A DNA stretch of 62,199 nt from a virus (lineage: Duplodnaviria; Caudoviricetes), in IMG/VR virus record IMGVR_UViG_3300024182_000003, positions 1 through 62,199 of that record, one strand, 5' to 3'. Under the pieces are notes generated by a model that worked only from the letters and a program-made list of their open reading frames with translations, made no database searches and had not been told where the DNA came from. The position numbers were made by a program, and so were the translations under genes. Below, piece after piece: positions 47,640 to 52,135 of the stretch; position 1 is the stretch's first letter, and every line of letters begins with the position of its first letter.

Positions 47640-48082
47640 ATCCTATCCTTTCCTGACATACCAGAATTGACGGTGATAGTCAGTGTTCCGAGGTTAACTG
47701 CTTTATCACTCTGAAGTGACATTGAACTATCCATAACATCCATTCTACCTAACTGGTCTGAGGTGTCAAGCTCAAAAGTGAGGATTTCAAGTTGTAGGCA
47801 AAAAATATAGAGTTTTAGATGATCTTCCCTTAATCCACCCCAGGTAGCAGCTTCAGGATTGAAGATAGTGGCGAAAGCTTTGATATGCTCAACAAGTAAG
47901 GTCTCTTCGTTGTAATCCAGGATTCCGTCAGTTCTAAAAGACGGGTGTTTTAGCATCCATAAATGGAGTTGCAACTTACGAGCCTTTTCTATTAGCTGTC
48001 TTTTTGTTTTTGTGATTTTCATAAGGAACCTGAGCCGCGCTTCTTCCGATATGGGCTGCTTGTAGCCATTCGATTGCATCAC
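47621..48082 (-). CDS. Hypothetical protein
   Basis: ORF in operon; start uncertain. Confidence 0.45.
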   Translation of the reverse strand: MMQSNGYKQPISEEARLRFLMKITKTKRQLIEKARKLQLHLWMLKHPSFRTDGILDYNEETLLVEHIKAFATIFNPEAATWGGLREDHLKLYIFCLQLEILTFELDTSDQLGRMDVMDSSMSLQSDKAVNLGTLTITVNSGMSGKDRIWRRKK

Positions 48083-48245
48083 TAGTGCAGTCGGTTACGA
48101 TAAAGTTACCATACGGCCCTGATCCTTTATCAATGCCTAAGCAGAATCCTTGTTCTTCGCAAAACTTCGATAGATCGTTTAGGAACTTATCAATGTCTGG
48201 TCTAATGATTCGTTTTTCGTGAAGATAAGAATATCTGGCTGGCAT
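47976..48245 (-). CDS. Hypothetical protein
   Basis: ATG adjacent to previous stop. Confidence 0.45.
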   Translation of the reverse strand: MPARYSYLHEKRIIRPDIDKFLNDLSKFCEEQGFCLGIDKGSGPYGNFIVTDCTSDAIEWLQAAHIGRSAAQVPYENHKNKKTANRKGS

Positions 48246-48533
48246 TTATTCTTCCTTACGATTTAGCTTTGTTCTAAATCCAACTGCACTTGGATGTAAG
48301 CAACGACCTGTCATAGCCGGACAAGAACAACTTCCTGTTATGACATCTACGTTGTATCTTTGTCCACCTTCTTTGCTTAAGACAGACCATAAGTTTTTCG
48401 TACCCGGAATAGGCTTTGCTGTAATAGCGTAAACTAGAAATTCGAGTATCCTATCGTCTCTTTTGCAAAATGGTTTAGCGAGTTTTAGGAGTTTATAGAA
48501 AGCTTCTTCTTCTTTAGCTTTTAGCTCGATCAT
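48246..48533 (-). CDS. SWIM-type Zn-finger protein
   Basis: Y.V.....CSCP.....C.H. Confidence 0.65.
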   Translation of the reverse strand: MIELKAKEEEAFYKLLKLAKPFCKRDDRILEFLVYAITAKPIPGTKNLWSVLSKEGGQRYNVDVITGSCSCPAMTGRCLHPSAVGFRTKLNRKEE

Positions 48534-48843
48534 TTTTACTCGGTCTACCTACTGGACGTTTGTTCTTATTGAATCTGTCCAGTGTAGATTGATAGAAATA
48601 GATTCTTCGCTTGGCTGTATCGCGTCTATCAATAGTGAGGTTCTTTGCTATATAGACGTGATACTTCAATGCAGCCATTGATGGGAGTTCGCAGTAATCA
48701 ACTGCTTCTGCTGACGTGAATTGTCTTTGTCTAGGTTCCATTTGTTCGGTTCGTCCTTTTCTTGAGATCGTTGACATAGCGAGGTTTTTTTGGTAGAATC
48801 TTCTTGGCTCGCCGGTAGGTTGAACCGTCATTGAACCTAACAC
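48514..48843 (-). CDS. Putative HTH DNA-binding protein (first gene of the leftward operon)
   Basis: FT..EA..Y.....ALKYH...F..S.LD.F....RPVGRP; alternative start 48741. Confidence 0.55.
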   Translation of the reverse strand: MLGSMTVQPTGEPRRFYQKNLAMSTISRKGRTEQMEPRQRQFTSAEAVDYCELPSMAALKYHVYIAKNLTIDRRDTAKRRIYFYQSTLDRFNKNKRPVGRPSKNDRAKS

Positions 48844-48899
48844 TTTGCTGTACTCCTAAAAGTTACTTCATCACTTTGAAGTGACATTGCATAGTTAGG

Positions 48900-48928
48900 A
48901 TTATAGCAAAGTATGTTTTTATAGTCAA
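48900..48928 (-). promoter_or_regulatory. Near-consensus leftward sigma70 promoter flanked by two 18-bp dyads
   Basis: TTGACT-17-TATAAT; dyads at 48869 and 48980. Confidence 0.8.
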
Positions 48929-49064
48929 CTGCTAGCGAGCTGCCTTGATATAAAGATCGGGGAAACTTAGCCCAAACAGTGTCACTCTGAAGTGATGCTA
49001 AGCAACTTTTTGACTTAACATTCTCTCGGTGTTCTCAAGCCGAGATTCGAAGGAGATGACTTTT

Positions 49065-49148
49065 ATGGCTAAAGCAAAAAAGACCGCTAAGAAAAAGAAG
49101 AAAGGCGCAGTTGGCAAAAAGAAGGGTGGTGGCGGTCGCACTGGATAA
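49065..49148 (+). CDS. 27-aa Lys/Gly-rich micro-peptide MAKAKKTAKKKKKGAVGKKKGGGGRTG (not in ORF track)
   Basis: AAGGAG RBS; flanked by hairpins at 49024-49045 and 49169-49201. Confidence 0.7.
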   Translation: MAKAKKTAKKKKKGAVGKKKGGGGRTG

Positions 49149-49168
49149 TCCCTTCCGGTAAAACAGAT

Positions 49169-49205
49169 GAGGGATTCTATCTGTCGCGGGTAGAGTCCCT
49201 CGTTT
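49169..49205 (+). terminator. Hairpin/weak terminator between micro-peptide and PP-loop gene
   Basis: GAGGGATTCTATC/GGTAGAGTCCCTC stem (G-U allowed) followed by GTTT. Confidence 0.55.
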
Positions 49206-49908
49206 GGTGTCTATTATGGACGTATTAGCAGATTGTATTCAAAGGCTTGAAGTAGTGGCTAAGCGCACTGAGGGTAAGTTACTTGTGTCTTATTCTGGCG
49301 GAAAAGATAGTCTTGCAATTCTTGATATAGCTAGTCGAATCTTTGATCATATTGAATGCTTCTTTATGTACTTCCTGCCTGATATGCAATGCGTTCAACC
49401 GATGCTGAAGTTCGCCGAAGAAAACTATAAAGTTACAATTCATCAGTATCCGCATTGGGCTCTAGCTGTGTCACTTCGAGAAGGTATTTTTTGTGACAGT
49501 TATTATACTCTTGCTTCTCTTGATTGGTCATTGAAGGATATTTATACGCTTGTTGTTGACGATACTGAGATTCCTGCAATAGCTGTTGGTGCTAGGCGTA
49601 AAGAATCTCAGTGGCGTAGACGTACTATTAAGCAGATGGCGAAAATTAAGGAGGTTGTTTATCCTATTGAGAATTGGACAAAGCTCGATGTTATTGGATA
49701 TTTGAAGAGACGTGGATTACCTGTACCAAGATTAGATAAAGATGATCGCAGTGGTGTTGGCTTGTCGCCGGATCATATTCTTTGGTTGTATAAGCATTGG
49801 CCTCAAGATTACGCGAAGATAGTAAAGCGGTTTCCTTATATCGAAGCTGTGATTTGGAGAGAGAGATTCTATGGCGAAAGCGAAAAAGTCAGCGTCACCT
49901 CAGAGTGA
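49204..49908 (+). CDS. PAPS-reductase-like PP-loop protein
   Basis: VSYSGGKDS, G.R..ES..R, YPI.NW...DV..YL; no Fe-S Cys cluster or ECGLH tail. Confidence 0.85.
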   Translation: MVSIMDVLADCIQRLEVVAKRTEGKLLVSYSGGKDSLAILDIASRIFDHIECFFMYFLPDMQCVQPMLKFAEENYKVTIHQYPHWALAVSLREGIFCDSYYTLASLDWSLKDIYTLVVDDTEIPAIAVGARRKESQWRRRTIKQMAKIKEVVYPIENWTKLDVIGYLKRRGLPVPRLDKDDRSGVGLSPDHILWLYKHWPQDYAKIVKRFPYIEAVIWRERFYGESEKVSVTSE

Positions 49909-50608
49909 CACTGCTACTATATTTGACAATTATGTGATTGTCGAGATATATCGATCTGAGGCAAAGAATGCTCCCTATAATCCTCGTATCCTTTCTGCTT
50001 CTGCGCGAGAGAAATTACAAAAAGGGATTGATAAGTTTAAGTTATTAGGCCCACCGATTTGGAACCGAAAGACTGGAAATATTGTAGGTGGTCATCAGCG
50101 TCTTTCTATTTTAGACAGTCTTGCCGGTACAAAAGATTATCGATTAAAGGTTGCTGCTGTTGAGTTAAACGACAAACAAGAACGAGAAGCGAATATCTTA
50201 TTGAACAATCCTAATGCTCAGGGCGATTGGGATATCGAGAAACTTGGTGATTTACTTAAAGACCCTGAGATCGATATCGCTGGTACTGGATTTGGACTAG
50301 CTGATATTTACCGAATGTTTGGTGATGCACCGTTTCTTGATTCTGCCGAAAGAGCGGAAACTTTAGCTGCTGAGTTAAGGGAAGCTCGTGAACGTTGGGA
50401 AAAGATTACAAGTGCTGCGCAGGAAGAAGCTAGCGAAGAGTTTTATATCGTTGTGATCTTTGAGGACGGTAAGAAATTGATGAAGTTCTTTAAGATATTA
50501 GGACTTGAAGCTAATCGTTATCAGGATGCGCGAGATATTATACGTCACTTTCCAAAAGCTCTTCAGCCGTCGTTCGAATTGACTCCAAAGAAAGCTTCAA
50601 AAAAGTGA
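49871..50608 (+). CDS. ParB/Srx N-terminal domain protein
   Basis: APYNPR.......L...I..F....P.IWN..TG.IVGGHQRL. Confidence 0.85.
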   Translation: MAKAKKSASPQSDTATIFDNYVIVEIYRSEAKNAPYNPRILSASAREKLQKGIDKFKLLGPPIWNRKTGNIVGGHQRLSILDSLAGTKDYRLKVAAVELNDKQEREANILLNNPNAQGDWDIEKLGDLLKDPEIDIAGTGFGLADIYRMFGDAPFLDSAERAETLAAELREARERWEKITSAAQEEASEEFYIVVIFEDGKKLMKFFKILGLEANRYQDARDIIRHFPKALQPSFELTPKKASKK

Positions 50609-51058
50609 GTCCTGCGTCACTTCAGAGTTACGTTCAGGTAATGGATAGGCGTTGTATTCTTGAGAGTTTCTTTCGATTGCTTTTTGAAGGTCTGATGCGA
50701 ATACATAGTGGTCTCGATAGATATGTGCGATATCTACTTCCGGTAGAAGTTGAACTGCAATCTCGTGATGTCTATGACATTCGCCAGGAGCTTCTTCGAG
50801 GCATAACAGCAGTAGGTTCATTTGTTGATGTTCTCGGAGAAAATCTAATCCGGTTTGTTGAACTTGTTGGCCTCCTAGCTGCGGCATTGATATGTACTGT
50901 TCTTGAATGACTCTTTGTAAGTTGTAGAGTGAGAATTCAGGATTGCGGGAATAAGGCGAGCGCCTAGTGTCGATAAGCAGGTCAATATCGAGATGAGAAA
51001 TTATTCGGTTAAGGGATTCGGCTCTAGACAATCGTTGATATCCTATGCTCCAAATCAT
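50597..51058 (-). CDS. DUF488 family protein
   Basis: IWSIGY, LID.R..PYSR.P.F, LGG, LLC.E..P..CHR. Confidence 0.8.
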   Translation of the reverse strand: MIWSIGYQRLSRAESLNRIISHLDIDLLIDTRRSPYSRNPEFSLYNLQRVIQEQYISMPQLGGQQVQQTGLDFLREHQQMNLLLLCLEEAPGECHRHHEIAVQLLPEVDIAHIYRDHYVFASDLQKAIERNSQEYNAYPLPERNSEVTQDSLF

Positions 51059-51065
51059 AGGACTC

Positions 51066-51094
51066 ATTATATCACGAATATTGAGGATTGACAA
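51066..51094 (-). promoter_or_regulatory. Promoter for DUF488 gene (likely leaderless)
   Basis: TTGTCA-17-TATAAT, 7 nt before ATG 51058. Confidence 0.6.
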
Positions 51095-51098
51095 GATT

Positions 51099-51527
51099 AT
51101 GCGGCTTAATAGACAACGACTTTCCGACGAAGAAAAGAGCAAGCGGTGTGTGTCTTGTGGTAAGTGTTGTATGATAATGTCGATCGATGGTGGTGAACTT
51201 ACCGAGGATAAAGAAGACGAGATACGGTGGGCAAAACTTCACGGTGTTATCATTGAGACCTTTACGTATCGAGGTAAGACGCATTTTTACTATACGATTC
51301 CTAAGCCGTGTAATGCTTTAGATATTTCAGAAGACGCGGACGGACAAAAGCAATACAGGTGCAGTATTTATAATACACGTCCTCAAGTGTGCGTAGATTA
51401 TGATGGTGACGATGCACCTCCAGTCGGAATTACTGATTGTGCTTGGCGAACTGAGCCGTTATCTAAGTCTTTTGATGTTGGTTATCAATTCGTGCAAATT
51501 GAAAAAGCTTCAAGCGAAAGAGCTTGA
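51099..51527 (+). CDS. YkgJ-family (CxxCxxCC) protein 1
   Basis: CVSCGKCC...PC..L...C.IY.TRP.VC..Y. Confidence 0.8.
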   Translation: MRLNRQRLSDEEKSKRCVSCGKCCMIMSIDGGELTEDKEDEIRWAKLHGVIIETFTYRGKTHFYYTIPKPCNALDISEDADGQKQYRCSIYNTRPQVCVDYDGDDAPPVGITDCAWRTEPLSKSFDVGYQFVQIEKASSERA

Positions 51528-51745: not shown

Positions 51746-52135
51746 ATGTCGATCCTTAAGAAGCTTCCAGTATTGTATGATTGCGATAAATGCCCTGCTT
51801 GGTGTTGTACGTATGAAGAGATCGAGATTTCAGATAAAGAGATTCAACGAATTGCCGATCATTTCAAAATTTCTTTTACTACTGCGAGGCGTCGATTTAC
51901 TCAGGCTACCGAAGAGGGTGATGGACGGAGCTTATCTATTATTCCTGATCCTGATCCTGATTACTTCGGCAAAGCTTGTGTGTTTCTTGATCTTGGAAAA
52001 CGGTTCTGTACTATTTACGAAGTGCGTCCTCAAGTATGTAGATCATTTCCGTATGCCAAGCACTGCGGTTATTGGGACTTTCTAAAGTTTCAACGTAAGC
52101 ACGCTTTAGATGATAAACTTATCGCAAAGACCTAA
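51746..52135 (+). CDS. YkgJ-family (CxxCxxCC) protein 2
   Basis: CDKCPAWCC...CVFLD....CTIYE.RP.VCR.FP. Confidence 0.85.
   Translation: MSILKKLPVLYDCDKCPAWCCTYEEIEISDKEIQRIADHFKISFTTARRRFTQATEEGDGRSLSIIPDPDPDYFGKACVFLDLGKRFCTIYEVRPQVCRSFPYAKHCGYWDFLKFQRKHALDDKLIAKT

Follow-up and report, generated by a model that had tools for sequence, protein, structure and literature searches.

Comparative analysis of the phage record IMGVR_UViG_3300024182_000003 (IMG/VR; Duplodnaviria, Caudoviricetes) shows that a gene for a microprotein of 27 amino acids (aa), at positions 49065-49148, is tied to the gene pair that follows it, which encodes a PP-loop ATP pyrophosphatase and a ParB/Srx-like protein. The window, by which we mean the whole stretch of DNA analysed, is the complete virus record of 62,199 bp, with direct terminal repeats and a G+C content of ~44%. 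The micro-open reading frame (micro-ORF) has the look of a translated gene, it is conserved and linked to the pair, the pairing of the PP-loop and ParB-like genes is obligate, and the C-terminus of the microprotein is free, with a polarity that runs from a basic body to a glycine end. The three genes may constitute one module, made up of a disordered Gly-tailed polycation, a Cys-less PP-loop enzyme and a ParB/Srx-like protein, in which the microprotein would be the dedicated substrate or carrier of the pair; this is our preferred reading, put forward tentatively and at somewhat less than even confidence. The gene pair is known and widely annotated, while its Gly-tailed microprotein partner is new and outside any named family. 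A full-text literature search, in which supplementary files (possibly listing small genes) were not covered, found neither a functional study of PP-loop/ParB pairs nor any mention of a small basic Gly-tailed partner of the pair.

The microprotein gene (49065-49148, + strand) encodes MAKAKKTAKKKKKGAVGKKKGGGGRTG, as read from the ORF translation, with a polybasic body and an oligo-Gly C-terminus. A Shine-Dalgarno (SD) sequence, AAGGAG (49050-49055, +), lies 9 nucleotides (nt) 5' of the ATG, in agreement with the initial annotation, which had proposed a Lys/Gly ORF with this ribosome-binding site. A second in-frame ATG at 49056 directly abuts the SD site and is unlikely to be the start. When both strands of the 62 kb were scanned for ORFs with at least 28% Lys plus Arg, at least three Gly within the last eight residues and no more than one acidic residue, this was the sole ORF recovered. 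The exact peptide is absent from a collection of 15 billion proteins, and the earlier description of the ORF as unannotated is therefore correct; seven of the ten micro-ORF peptides that were looked up in this collection are absent from it. None of the micro-ORF peptides searched scored above the cut-offs in Pfam, PHROG or NCBIfam; the sole matches were compositional ones, to chlamydial Hc2. The 42-aa microprotein of one related locus (L188) is clustered in the protein collection with proteins of about 500 aa, one of them named CobQ, a grouping that looks like a low-complexity clustering artefact. Between the micro-ORF and the PP-loop gene stands a 20-pair hairpin followed by a weak U-tract (49164-49206, +), whose minimum free energy of -30.8 kcal/mol (z -5.5) was equalled by none of 200 dinucleotide shuffles and which is a candidate partial terminator or attenuator. 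The micro-ORF had been described as flanked by hairpins on both sides; the 3' structure is strong, but the weak 5' stem-loop (49024-49046, +), although present, is at chance level, since 60 of 200 shuffles fold equally well (z -0.38).

The association with the enzyme pair was assessed in a census of related loci, gathered with two PP-loop alignments (A1 and A2) and one ParB alignment (A3) from viral contigs, species genomes and metagenomes; a scan of viral contigs with the single PP-loop protein gave no matches, so that alignments were needed. The 139 loci with both genes were reduced to 98 by merging PP-loop proteins of at least 90% identity, and 92 of these have at least 200 nt upstream. The census rule called for an ORF of 12-140 aa whose end is located from -250 to +160 relative to the PP-loop start, with at least 20% Lys plus Arg, a net charge of at least +5 and at least two Gly among the last five residues. 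Such an ORF is present in 50 of the 92 loci, compared with 58 of the 1068 controls (an odds ratio of 20.7, with p 3e-32), which is the outcome that the initial annotation had named as its own test, namely conserved short basic Gly-ending ORFs upstream of homologous pairs. The controls were ORFs of at least 120 aa from both strands of the same loci and are conservative because they include shadow frames and frames adjoining the pair. A further 15 loci, judged by eye, have a Gly-tailed ORF with a start codon in the same place that fails the charge filter only (in L199, for example, the tail is ...AKKGNVGSMGG), which brings the total to ~65 of 92. The enrichment persists when composition is disregarded: the longest ATG-initiated ORF (15-140 aa) whose end falls from -150 to +30 relative to the PP-loop start has a terminal Gly in 35 of 89 loci, compared with 51 of the 715 controls (an odds ratio of 8.4, with p 1e-14). 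A 'class B' category, comprising basic small ORFs without a Gly tail, was discarded as uninformative because 581 of the 1068 controls also fall into it.

The ORFs found in this way share more than their position. Beside the pairs, Gly accounts for a fraction of 0.35 of the last five residues and 0.10 of the body, compared with 0.07 and 0.06 in the controls. The 50 rule-positive peptides have a median length of 39 aa (range 18-130); 43 of them end in Gly and 24 have Ala at position 2. Most of the ORFs start with ATG. SD-like motifs precede 27 of 31 hand-listed micro-ORFs, and 14 of the 31 either overlap the PP-loop start or end no more than 16 nt from it. The loci with micro-ORFs range from 29% to 69% in G+C content and Arg substitutes for Lys at the high end, while the charge, Ala2 and the Gly end are kept, which implies constraint at the protein level. 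One clade (L180, L185, L188, L194, L197, L219 and others) has the common C-terminal motif F/Y-RRKS-x-GG-x-GG. Where tandem copies occur within one genome their bodies differ and their tails agree: both copies in L100 end in GGGGQ and both in L104 in GGGGGGG, with further cases in L105, L032 and L017/L165. Some tails (L100, L015/L186) terminate in Gly-Gly-Gln or Gly-Ala-Gly-Gln and are reminiscent of the prokaryotic ubiquitin-like protein Pup, of which a GGQ end is a feature. In a FastTree phylogeny of the 98 PP-loop proteins, Gly-tailed ORFs fall on either side of the midpoint root, a pattern consistent with an ancient association that was later varied or lost. A search with the ParB protein of the window led to three related loci. 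In two of these, L002 (MAKKKIRGNRRSRGGRGKGGGGGGG) and L003 (MARKVTRKTRKAATRKTTRKSRGARKAARRTGGGG), the PP-loop gene is directly preceded by a basic ORF that ends in Gly and has a strong SD sequence, and in the third, L004, the micro-ORF (MAKRKAAKKLKARGAKKSGGGKKGKGGGGGGGG) is located 3' of the ParB gene, with its own SD sequence and a clean terminator, just before the terminase genes TerS and TerL. In cultured phages only distant pairs occur (no more than 32% identity), and TerS and TerL come next in each case. Upstream of its enzyme gene, Bacteroides phage BS-TP2 encodes an annotated 'hypothetical protein', basic and 53 aa long, with the C-terminus ...GVRGANGSNG, and an unannotated 44-aa basic ORF occupies this place in Riemerella phage RAP44; no such ORF is visible upstream of the enzyme gene in Lactobacillus phage LR1.

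The micro-ORF follows the complete pair rather than the PP-loop enzyme as such. None of 35 PP-loop relatives that lack a ParB gene has the micro-ORF, in a set of fetched DNA in which identity is no more than 28% and many members are near-identical to each other. A PP-loop ORF lies directly upstream in 77 of 80 ParB relatives; two of the three exceptions are at contig ends, and the third, L203, is genuine. Proteins in which the PP-loop and ParB parts are fused also exist (P0016, 445 aa; P0017, 436 aa). Despite the close spacing or overlap in 14 of 31 loci, the microprotein is not fused in this manner: a basic oligo-Gly N-terminal extension in frame with the PP-loop ORF occurs in none of the 98 loci and is likewise absent from the eight N-extended representatives inspected, of 150 listed. 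Several alternative roles for the short frame can be set aside. A frameshift or readthrough from the micro-ORF into the PP-loop gene has no support, since no plus-strand ORF of at least 20 aa links them and an in-frame fusion is found in none of the 98 relatives. The poly-Gly codons are not likely to act as an SD sequence for the enzyme gene, given that the spacer in the window is 67 nt and that the Gly tail in L004 is distant from the enzyme gene, and a sensor of Lys codons does not fit the replacement of Lys by Arg at high G+C content.

The enzyme gene (49216-49908, +; alternative start TTG at 49204) encodes a PP-loop ATP pyrophosphatase of 230 aa from the PAPS_reduct family (PF01507, E 7e-13). 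The SGGKDS motif is kept, and across 35 relatives S27, G29, K30, D31, G125, P150 and W154 are invariant and S32 is at least 90% conserved. No Cys is conserved among the same 35 relatives, and the C-terminus, ...RERFYGESEKVSVTSE, is without an ECGLH tail; these features agree with the initial annotation, which had described a PAPS-reductase-like protein with SGGKDS but without Fe-S cysteines or that tail. The structural model (predicted local distance difference test, pLDDT, 90) gave 208 fold matches in the PDB at E <=1e-3, the closest solved folds being LarE, TtuA (including the TtuA-TtuB complex 5gha), TilS, GMP synthase and APS reductase, and the best PDB matches by sequence profile are CysD, LarE and argininosuccinate synthetase. 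With its SGGxDS motif and a Rossmann-like alpha/beta fold, the enzyme is a member of the PP-loop ATP pyrophosphatase superfamily, and at E <=1e-30 its own family, the short form alone, comprises 588 clusters (50% identity). More specific identities were considered and rejected. ECGLH is the name of the catalytic-Cys motif of PAPS/APS reductase (CysH), and besides the absence of this tail and of a conserved Cys, the scores with the NCBIfam CysH models are 15-23 bits, below the cut-offs of these models (154-254). DndC or SspD is excluded by the lack of a conserved Cys, a score of 13.1 bits for TIGR03183 (cut-off 290.4) and PADLOC DndC matches at E 0.002-0.013. The architecture of IbrA is PAPS_reduct followed by a C-terminal DUF3440, and Pfam shows only PF01507 in the 230-aa protein. 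For the QueC family (PF06508), the PADLOC QueC model reaches only E 0.028.

The ParB/Srx-like protein (49871-50608, +; 245 aa) begins with MAKAKK, as stated in the initial annotation, and its gene shares 38 nt with the end of the PP-loop gene. It matches phrog_9353 at 4e-46, in addition to ParB PHROGs, and no Pfam family at E <=0.01. In 33 sequences, G74 and Q76 of its GGHQR motif are invariant and H75 and R77 are at least 90% conserved. The model (pLDDT 81) consists of an N-domain to which a long helix and a small C-domain are joined, and its secondary structure gives no clear sign of a helix-turn-helix (HTH); its best Foldseek match is 6sdk (ParB-CDP, E 8e-7), followed by Noc, KorB and sulfiredoxin. 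The fold of the N-domain and the Gly-x-x-Arg nucleotide-binding motif place the protein in the ParB/Srx superfamily. The ParB proteins of chromosome and plasmid partition have a central HTH DNA-binding domain that recognises parS. The two enzyme partners differ in charge: over 51 rows, some of them duplicates, the median isoelectric point (pI) is 9.0 for the PP-loop protein (basic) and 5.3 for the ParB partner (acidic).

How the three products could work together can be proposed from the genes and from related enzymes. The thin and flexible Gly tail would enter the PP-loop active site, where its terminal carboxylate would be adenylated, ATP being converted to AMP-peptide and pyrophosphate. In the next step the activated peptide would be handed on, and candidate nucleophiles are ammonia, sulfide or an amine carried by DNA or by a protein bound to it. 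The peptide would be kept on DNA by its basic body, the ParB-like subunit would load or activate the enzyme there, and the hairpin or terminator behind the micro-ORF would ensure an excess of peptide over both enzymes. PP-loop enzymes often adenylate a carboxylate or carbonyl oxygen, as in LarE, QueC, NAD synthetase and asparagine synthetase. This carboxylate chemistry, the precedent of TtuB and the tails modified by QueC-family enzymes support the tail as the target of the enzyme, and the precedent of 5mYOX-ParB suggests a role for the ParB-like subunit. The first interpretation of this locus, an enzyme that activates the C-terminal Gly and attaches the peptide to DNA or a virion protein, is retained here in part: the census supports a peptide that goes with the enzyme pair and has its constrained end at the C-terminus, but the basic ORFs of some relatives do not end in Gly, and adenylation of the tail with attachment to DNA or a virion protein may be suggested by analogy. 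A joint model of the PP-loop alignment, the ParB protein and a 30-aa peptide scored 0.00 in both runs, without controls, and is not evidence either way; the pLDDT of the peptide was under 50 in at least one run of the complex.

Several points weigh against a substrate or carrier role. The Gly tail is not universal, and roughly one locus in four has either nothing detectable or a basic small ORF whose last residue is Lys or Arg (L033, L036, L037, L039, L041 and the groups with MAETAEQ...RRVTR and MARGDN...). For the low-complexity peptides, alignment cannot demonstrate homology, which is argued from position, composition and polarity. In L004 the micro-ORF is 3' of ParB, beside the terminase genes and with its own terminator, a layout which implies that adjacency to the PP-loop gene is not obligatory. 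To our knowledge, no member of the PAPS_reduct family adenylates a peptide carboxylate.

The closest parallel to the preferred reading is TtuA-TtuB, together with Ncs6-Urm1, in which a PP-loop enzyme likewise works with a small Gly-ending protein; TtuA and its complex with TtuB (5gha) are among the top fold matches of the enzyme. TtuB itself folds as a beta-grasp, depends on an E1-like enzyme for its activation and delivers sulfur to an Fe-S site; its Gly-Gly tail reaches into the active site of TtuA. The present partner differs in being a fold-less polycation, the enzyme has no conserved Cys and no E1 gene is seen nearby. Assignment of the microproteins to the ubiquitin-like or sulfur-carrier class (ThiS, MoaD, TtuB, Urm1) was rejected despite the terminal Gly in 43 of 50 peptides, because a beta-grasp is not possible in a low-complexity peptide of 27 aa and uncertain fold. 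A second parallel is provided by the QueC-family enzymes Cap9, which acts on CdnD in the deazaguanylation of type IV CBASS (cyclic oligonucleotide-based antiphage signaling system), and QatC, which acts on QatB; in the available portions of the sources, they are shown or proposed to modify unstructured Gly-bearing tails. As far as these portions go, the likeness lies in a PP-loop adenylating enzyme dedicated to a flexible Gly motif of its partner. There, an N-terminal Gly motif gives the amine and a 7-deazaguanine gives the carboxylate, the enzymes are of the QueC family (PF06508) and the systems serve host defence, whereas the tail here is C-terminal, the enzyme belongs to PAPS_reduct and the system is phage-encoded. 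A substrate of the QatB or CdnD type is therefore not indicated: the Gly motif is at the other end, position 2 is Ala in 24 of 50 peptides and the enzyme is not of the QueC family.

The gene pair itself has known counterparts. The IbrA/IbrB-type pairs (YbdN/YbdM in E. coli K-12) and the phage pairs annotated as 'PAPS reductase + ParB-like nuclease' show the same two genes in the same order and in the context of the packaging module, but the enzyme here is short (230 aa) and has PF01507 only, without the DUF3440 of IbrA. In DNA phosphorothioation, DndB/DndC and SspB/SspD each combine a ParB-superfamily protein with a PAPS-reductase-like PP-loop ATPase, so that the same two superfamilies occur together and act on DNA, and DndC carries a 4Fe-4S centre and a Cys dyad, according to the part of the source that was available (PMC10853773). 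The present system differs from DndC in the lack of a conserved Cys, and no cysteine desulfurase, DndD or DndE was seen. The accessible part of the report on 5mYOX-ParB describes a phage ParB without an obvious DNA-binding domain that is needed by a thymine dioxygenase on dsDNA; on that description it matches the ParB model here in overall layout, with an N-domain that binds nucleotide and a C-domain, but the partner there is an Fe/2-oxoglutarate dioxygenase, and that part of the report mentions no small basic protein. The locus had also been likened to the operons of ribosomally synthesized and post-translationally modified peptides (RiPPs). The likeness is limited to gene order, the strong SD sequence and the trailing hairpin: among loci with spacers of at least 30 nt, 10 of 17 spacers fold much better than mononucleotide shuffles (z <= -2.4), which bears out the structured region after the ORF. 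No leader/core organisation, leader motif, protease, tailoring gene or export gene was seen in the flanks that were clustered, and the label of RiPP precursor is not established.

The main rival to a substrate role is that the microprotein is a non-covalent DNA-binding accessory, an H1-like polycation which would give the acidic ParB-like protein, apparently devoid of an HTH, DNA affinity in trans and tether the complex while itself staying unmodified. This seems unlikely, though by no means negligible. Such tethering would explain the charge complementarity, the ParB partner having a median pI of 5.3 and no HTH in its model, and the longer relatives (L007, L015, L045) do resemble H1/Hc2-type AKKAAKK repeat proteins, with L007 matching PF07382 at E 1.6e-5, below the family cut-off. 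Some relatives are without a Gly tail, and the phage ParB of 5mYOX, which lacks a DNA-binding domain, is an activator on dsDNA, in the part of that source available. The tethering model does not account for the polarity and terminal position of the Gly run (a frequency of 0.35, compared with 0.10 in the body) or for the exact Gly end of 43 of 50 peptides, and neither partner was found fused to the microprotein although a fused tether would work well. A bolder possibility is a fold-less 'ubiquitin-like' phage tag, in which the PP-loop enzyme would adenylate the C-terminal Gly without an E1 and the ParB-like protein would guide covalent ligation to phage DNA or a bound protein before packaging. 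We regard this as quite improbable; if a peptide were ligated to DNA in this way, phage DNA would be hypermodified with a ribosomally encoded peptide and so shielded from host nucleases.

The remaining explanations separate the peptide from the pair or deny it a function. An independent abundant polycation, either a DNA-condensing counter-ion co-packaged with the genome or an early protein that targets the host nucleoid, might stand near the pair merely through a shared operon position beside the packaging genes. The module does abut TerS and TerL in L004 and in the cultured phages RAP44, BS-TP2 and LR1, the L004 micro-ORF directly precedes TerS with its own SD sequence and clean terminator, and strong SD sequences and terminator-like hairpins would suit a highly expressed small protein. 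We nevertheless consider this improbable, because the ORF tracks the PP-loop/ParB pair and not the terminase (the module of the window is ~9 kb upstream of TerL), because none of the 35 ParB-less PP-loop genes has it and because, in 14 of 31 loci, it runs into the PP-loop start or is coupled to it. It is also conceivable that the micro-ORF is a regulatory upstream ORF whose translation, with an attenuator hairpin, tunes the expression of the PP-loop and ParB genes and whose peptide has no function, as the 20-pair hairpin of the window and the structured spacers in 10 of 17 loci might suggest. The protein-level constraint (Arg for Lys at high G+C content, with charge, Ala2 in 24 of 50 and the Gly end kept), the lack of room for an attenuator in 14 of 31 loci and the position of the L004 ORF, which is not upstream of the enzymes, make this very improbable. 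The frame is short, of low complexity and missed by gene callers, as a chance open frame in an intergenic region would be, but the enrichments (p 3e-32 and 1e-14), the SD sites and the fact that no other such ORF exists in 62 kb leave chance with virtually no credence.

In the window, leftward genes, including those for a DnaB-like helicase and a DnaD-like loader, extend from ~26 kb to 48.8 kb, and rightward genes start from 49 kb, with the module of micro-ORF, PP-loop and ParB genes at the head of the rightward block. Further along this block are two CxxCxxCC proteins, a UvsX/RecA-like recombinase (53764), ThyX (55008) and the large terminase (58164). A sigma-70-like promoter candidate, TTGACA-17-TAGAAT with TG (48771-48799, +), found by consensus scan only, could drive the rightward operon. 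The region 48771-48928 holds two near-consensus sigma-70-like promoter candidates, back-to-back and outward-facing, with 11 of 12 matches each, and the transcripts predicted from them overlap by ~90 nt. Two perfect copies of a 14-nt palindrome, TCACTYTGAAGTGA (48871-48884 and 48982-48995), lie in this divergent control region upstream of the micro-ORF. The palindrome has the stem TCACT/AGTGA and a 4-nt loop and occurs at ~45 sites genome-wide, with 57 strand-matches at no more than two mismatches compared with 1.65 expected and a maximum of 4 among 100 shuffles. Its sites include 1119, 3844, 6949, 16015, 19766, 21626, 26207, 39800, 45816, 47706, 48871, 48982, 49895, 50617, 53608, 58167 and 61793, mostly at gene boundaries in both transcription blocks, and they may act as stoperator-like binding sites for a repressor or as intercistronic hairpins in RNA. 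Rfam returned nothing for 48000-51500 at E <=1, a tRNA scan of the window was negative and a nucleotide search with the window produced no match among cultured phages. The stretch was matched in a single sequencing run, a soil metagenome DNA run that is a possible source; no RNA run was listed.

The module is followed by a convergent DUF488 gene (50597-51142, - strand; PF04343, E 4e-8), whose true start is probably internal. The DUF488 family occurs beside the pair in 12 of 52 clustered sequences, and the DUF488 protein of the window also matches the PADLOC defence-candidate models PDC-M19A and PDC-M45B. A small minus-strand protein, which we tentatively read as ASCH-like, is likewise found beside the pair in 12 of 52 clustered sequences, and terminase genes recur there too. 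The two CxxCxxCC proteins downstream of the module (51099-51527, + and 51746-52135, +) are paralogous and match PF03692, a family that includes the flagellin lysine N-methylase FliB. In L003, the gene immediately upstream of the Arg/Lys-rich micro-ORF (1555-2052) encodes what we tentatively take, from motifs in its translation, to be a SET-domain protein similar to lysine methyltransferases. A link between the module and lysine methylation was considered and dismissed, as neither the SET-like gene of L003 nor the PF03692 proteins recur in the clustered flanks.

Pairs of PAPS-reductase-like and ParB-like genes are among the commonest unexplained cassettes of phages and are often labelled as sulfur metabolism. 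Gene callers systematically overlook the microprotein, as the absence of seven of ten peptides from the protein collection illustrates. If this third component belongs to the system, it provides a defined candidate substrate and a route to what the pair does. By analogy, the module may be regarded as a variant among the PP-loop systems that act on a protein tail, such as TtuA-TtuB, Cap9 and QatC. If this is true, the action of PP-loop enzymes on disordered Gly-bearing tails would be extended from host defence to phages and from N-termini to C-termini.

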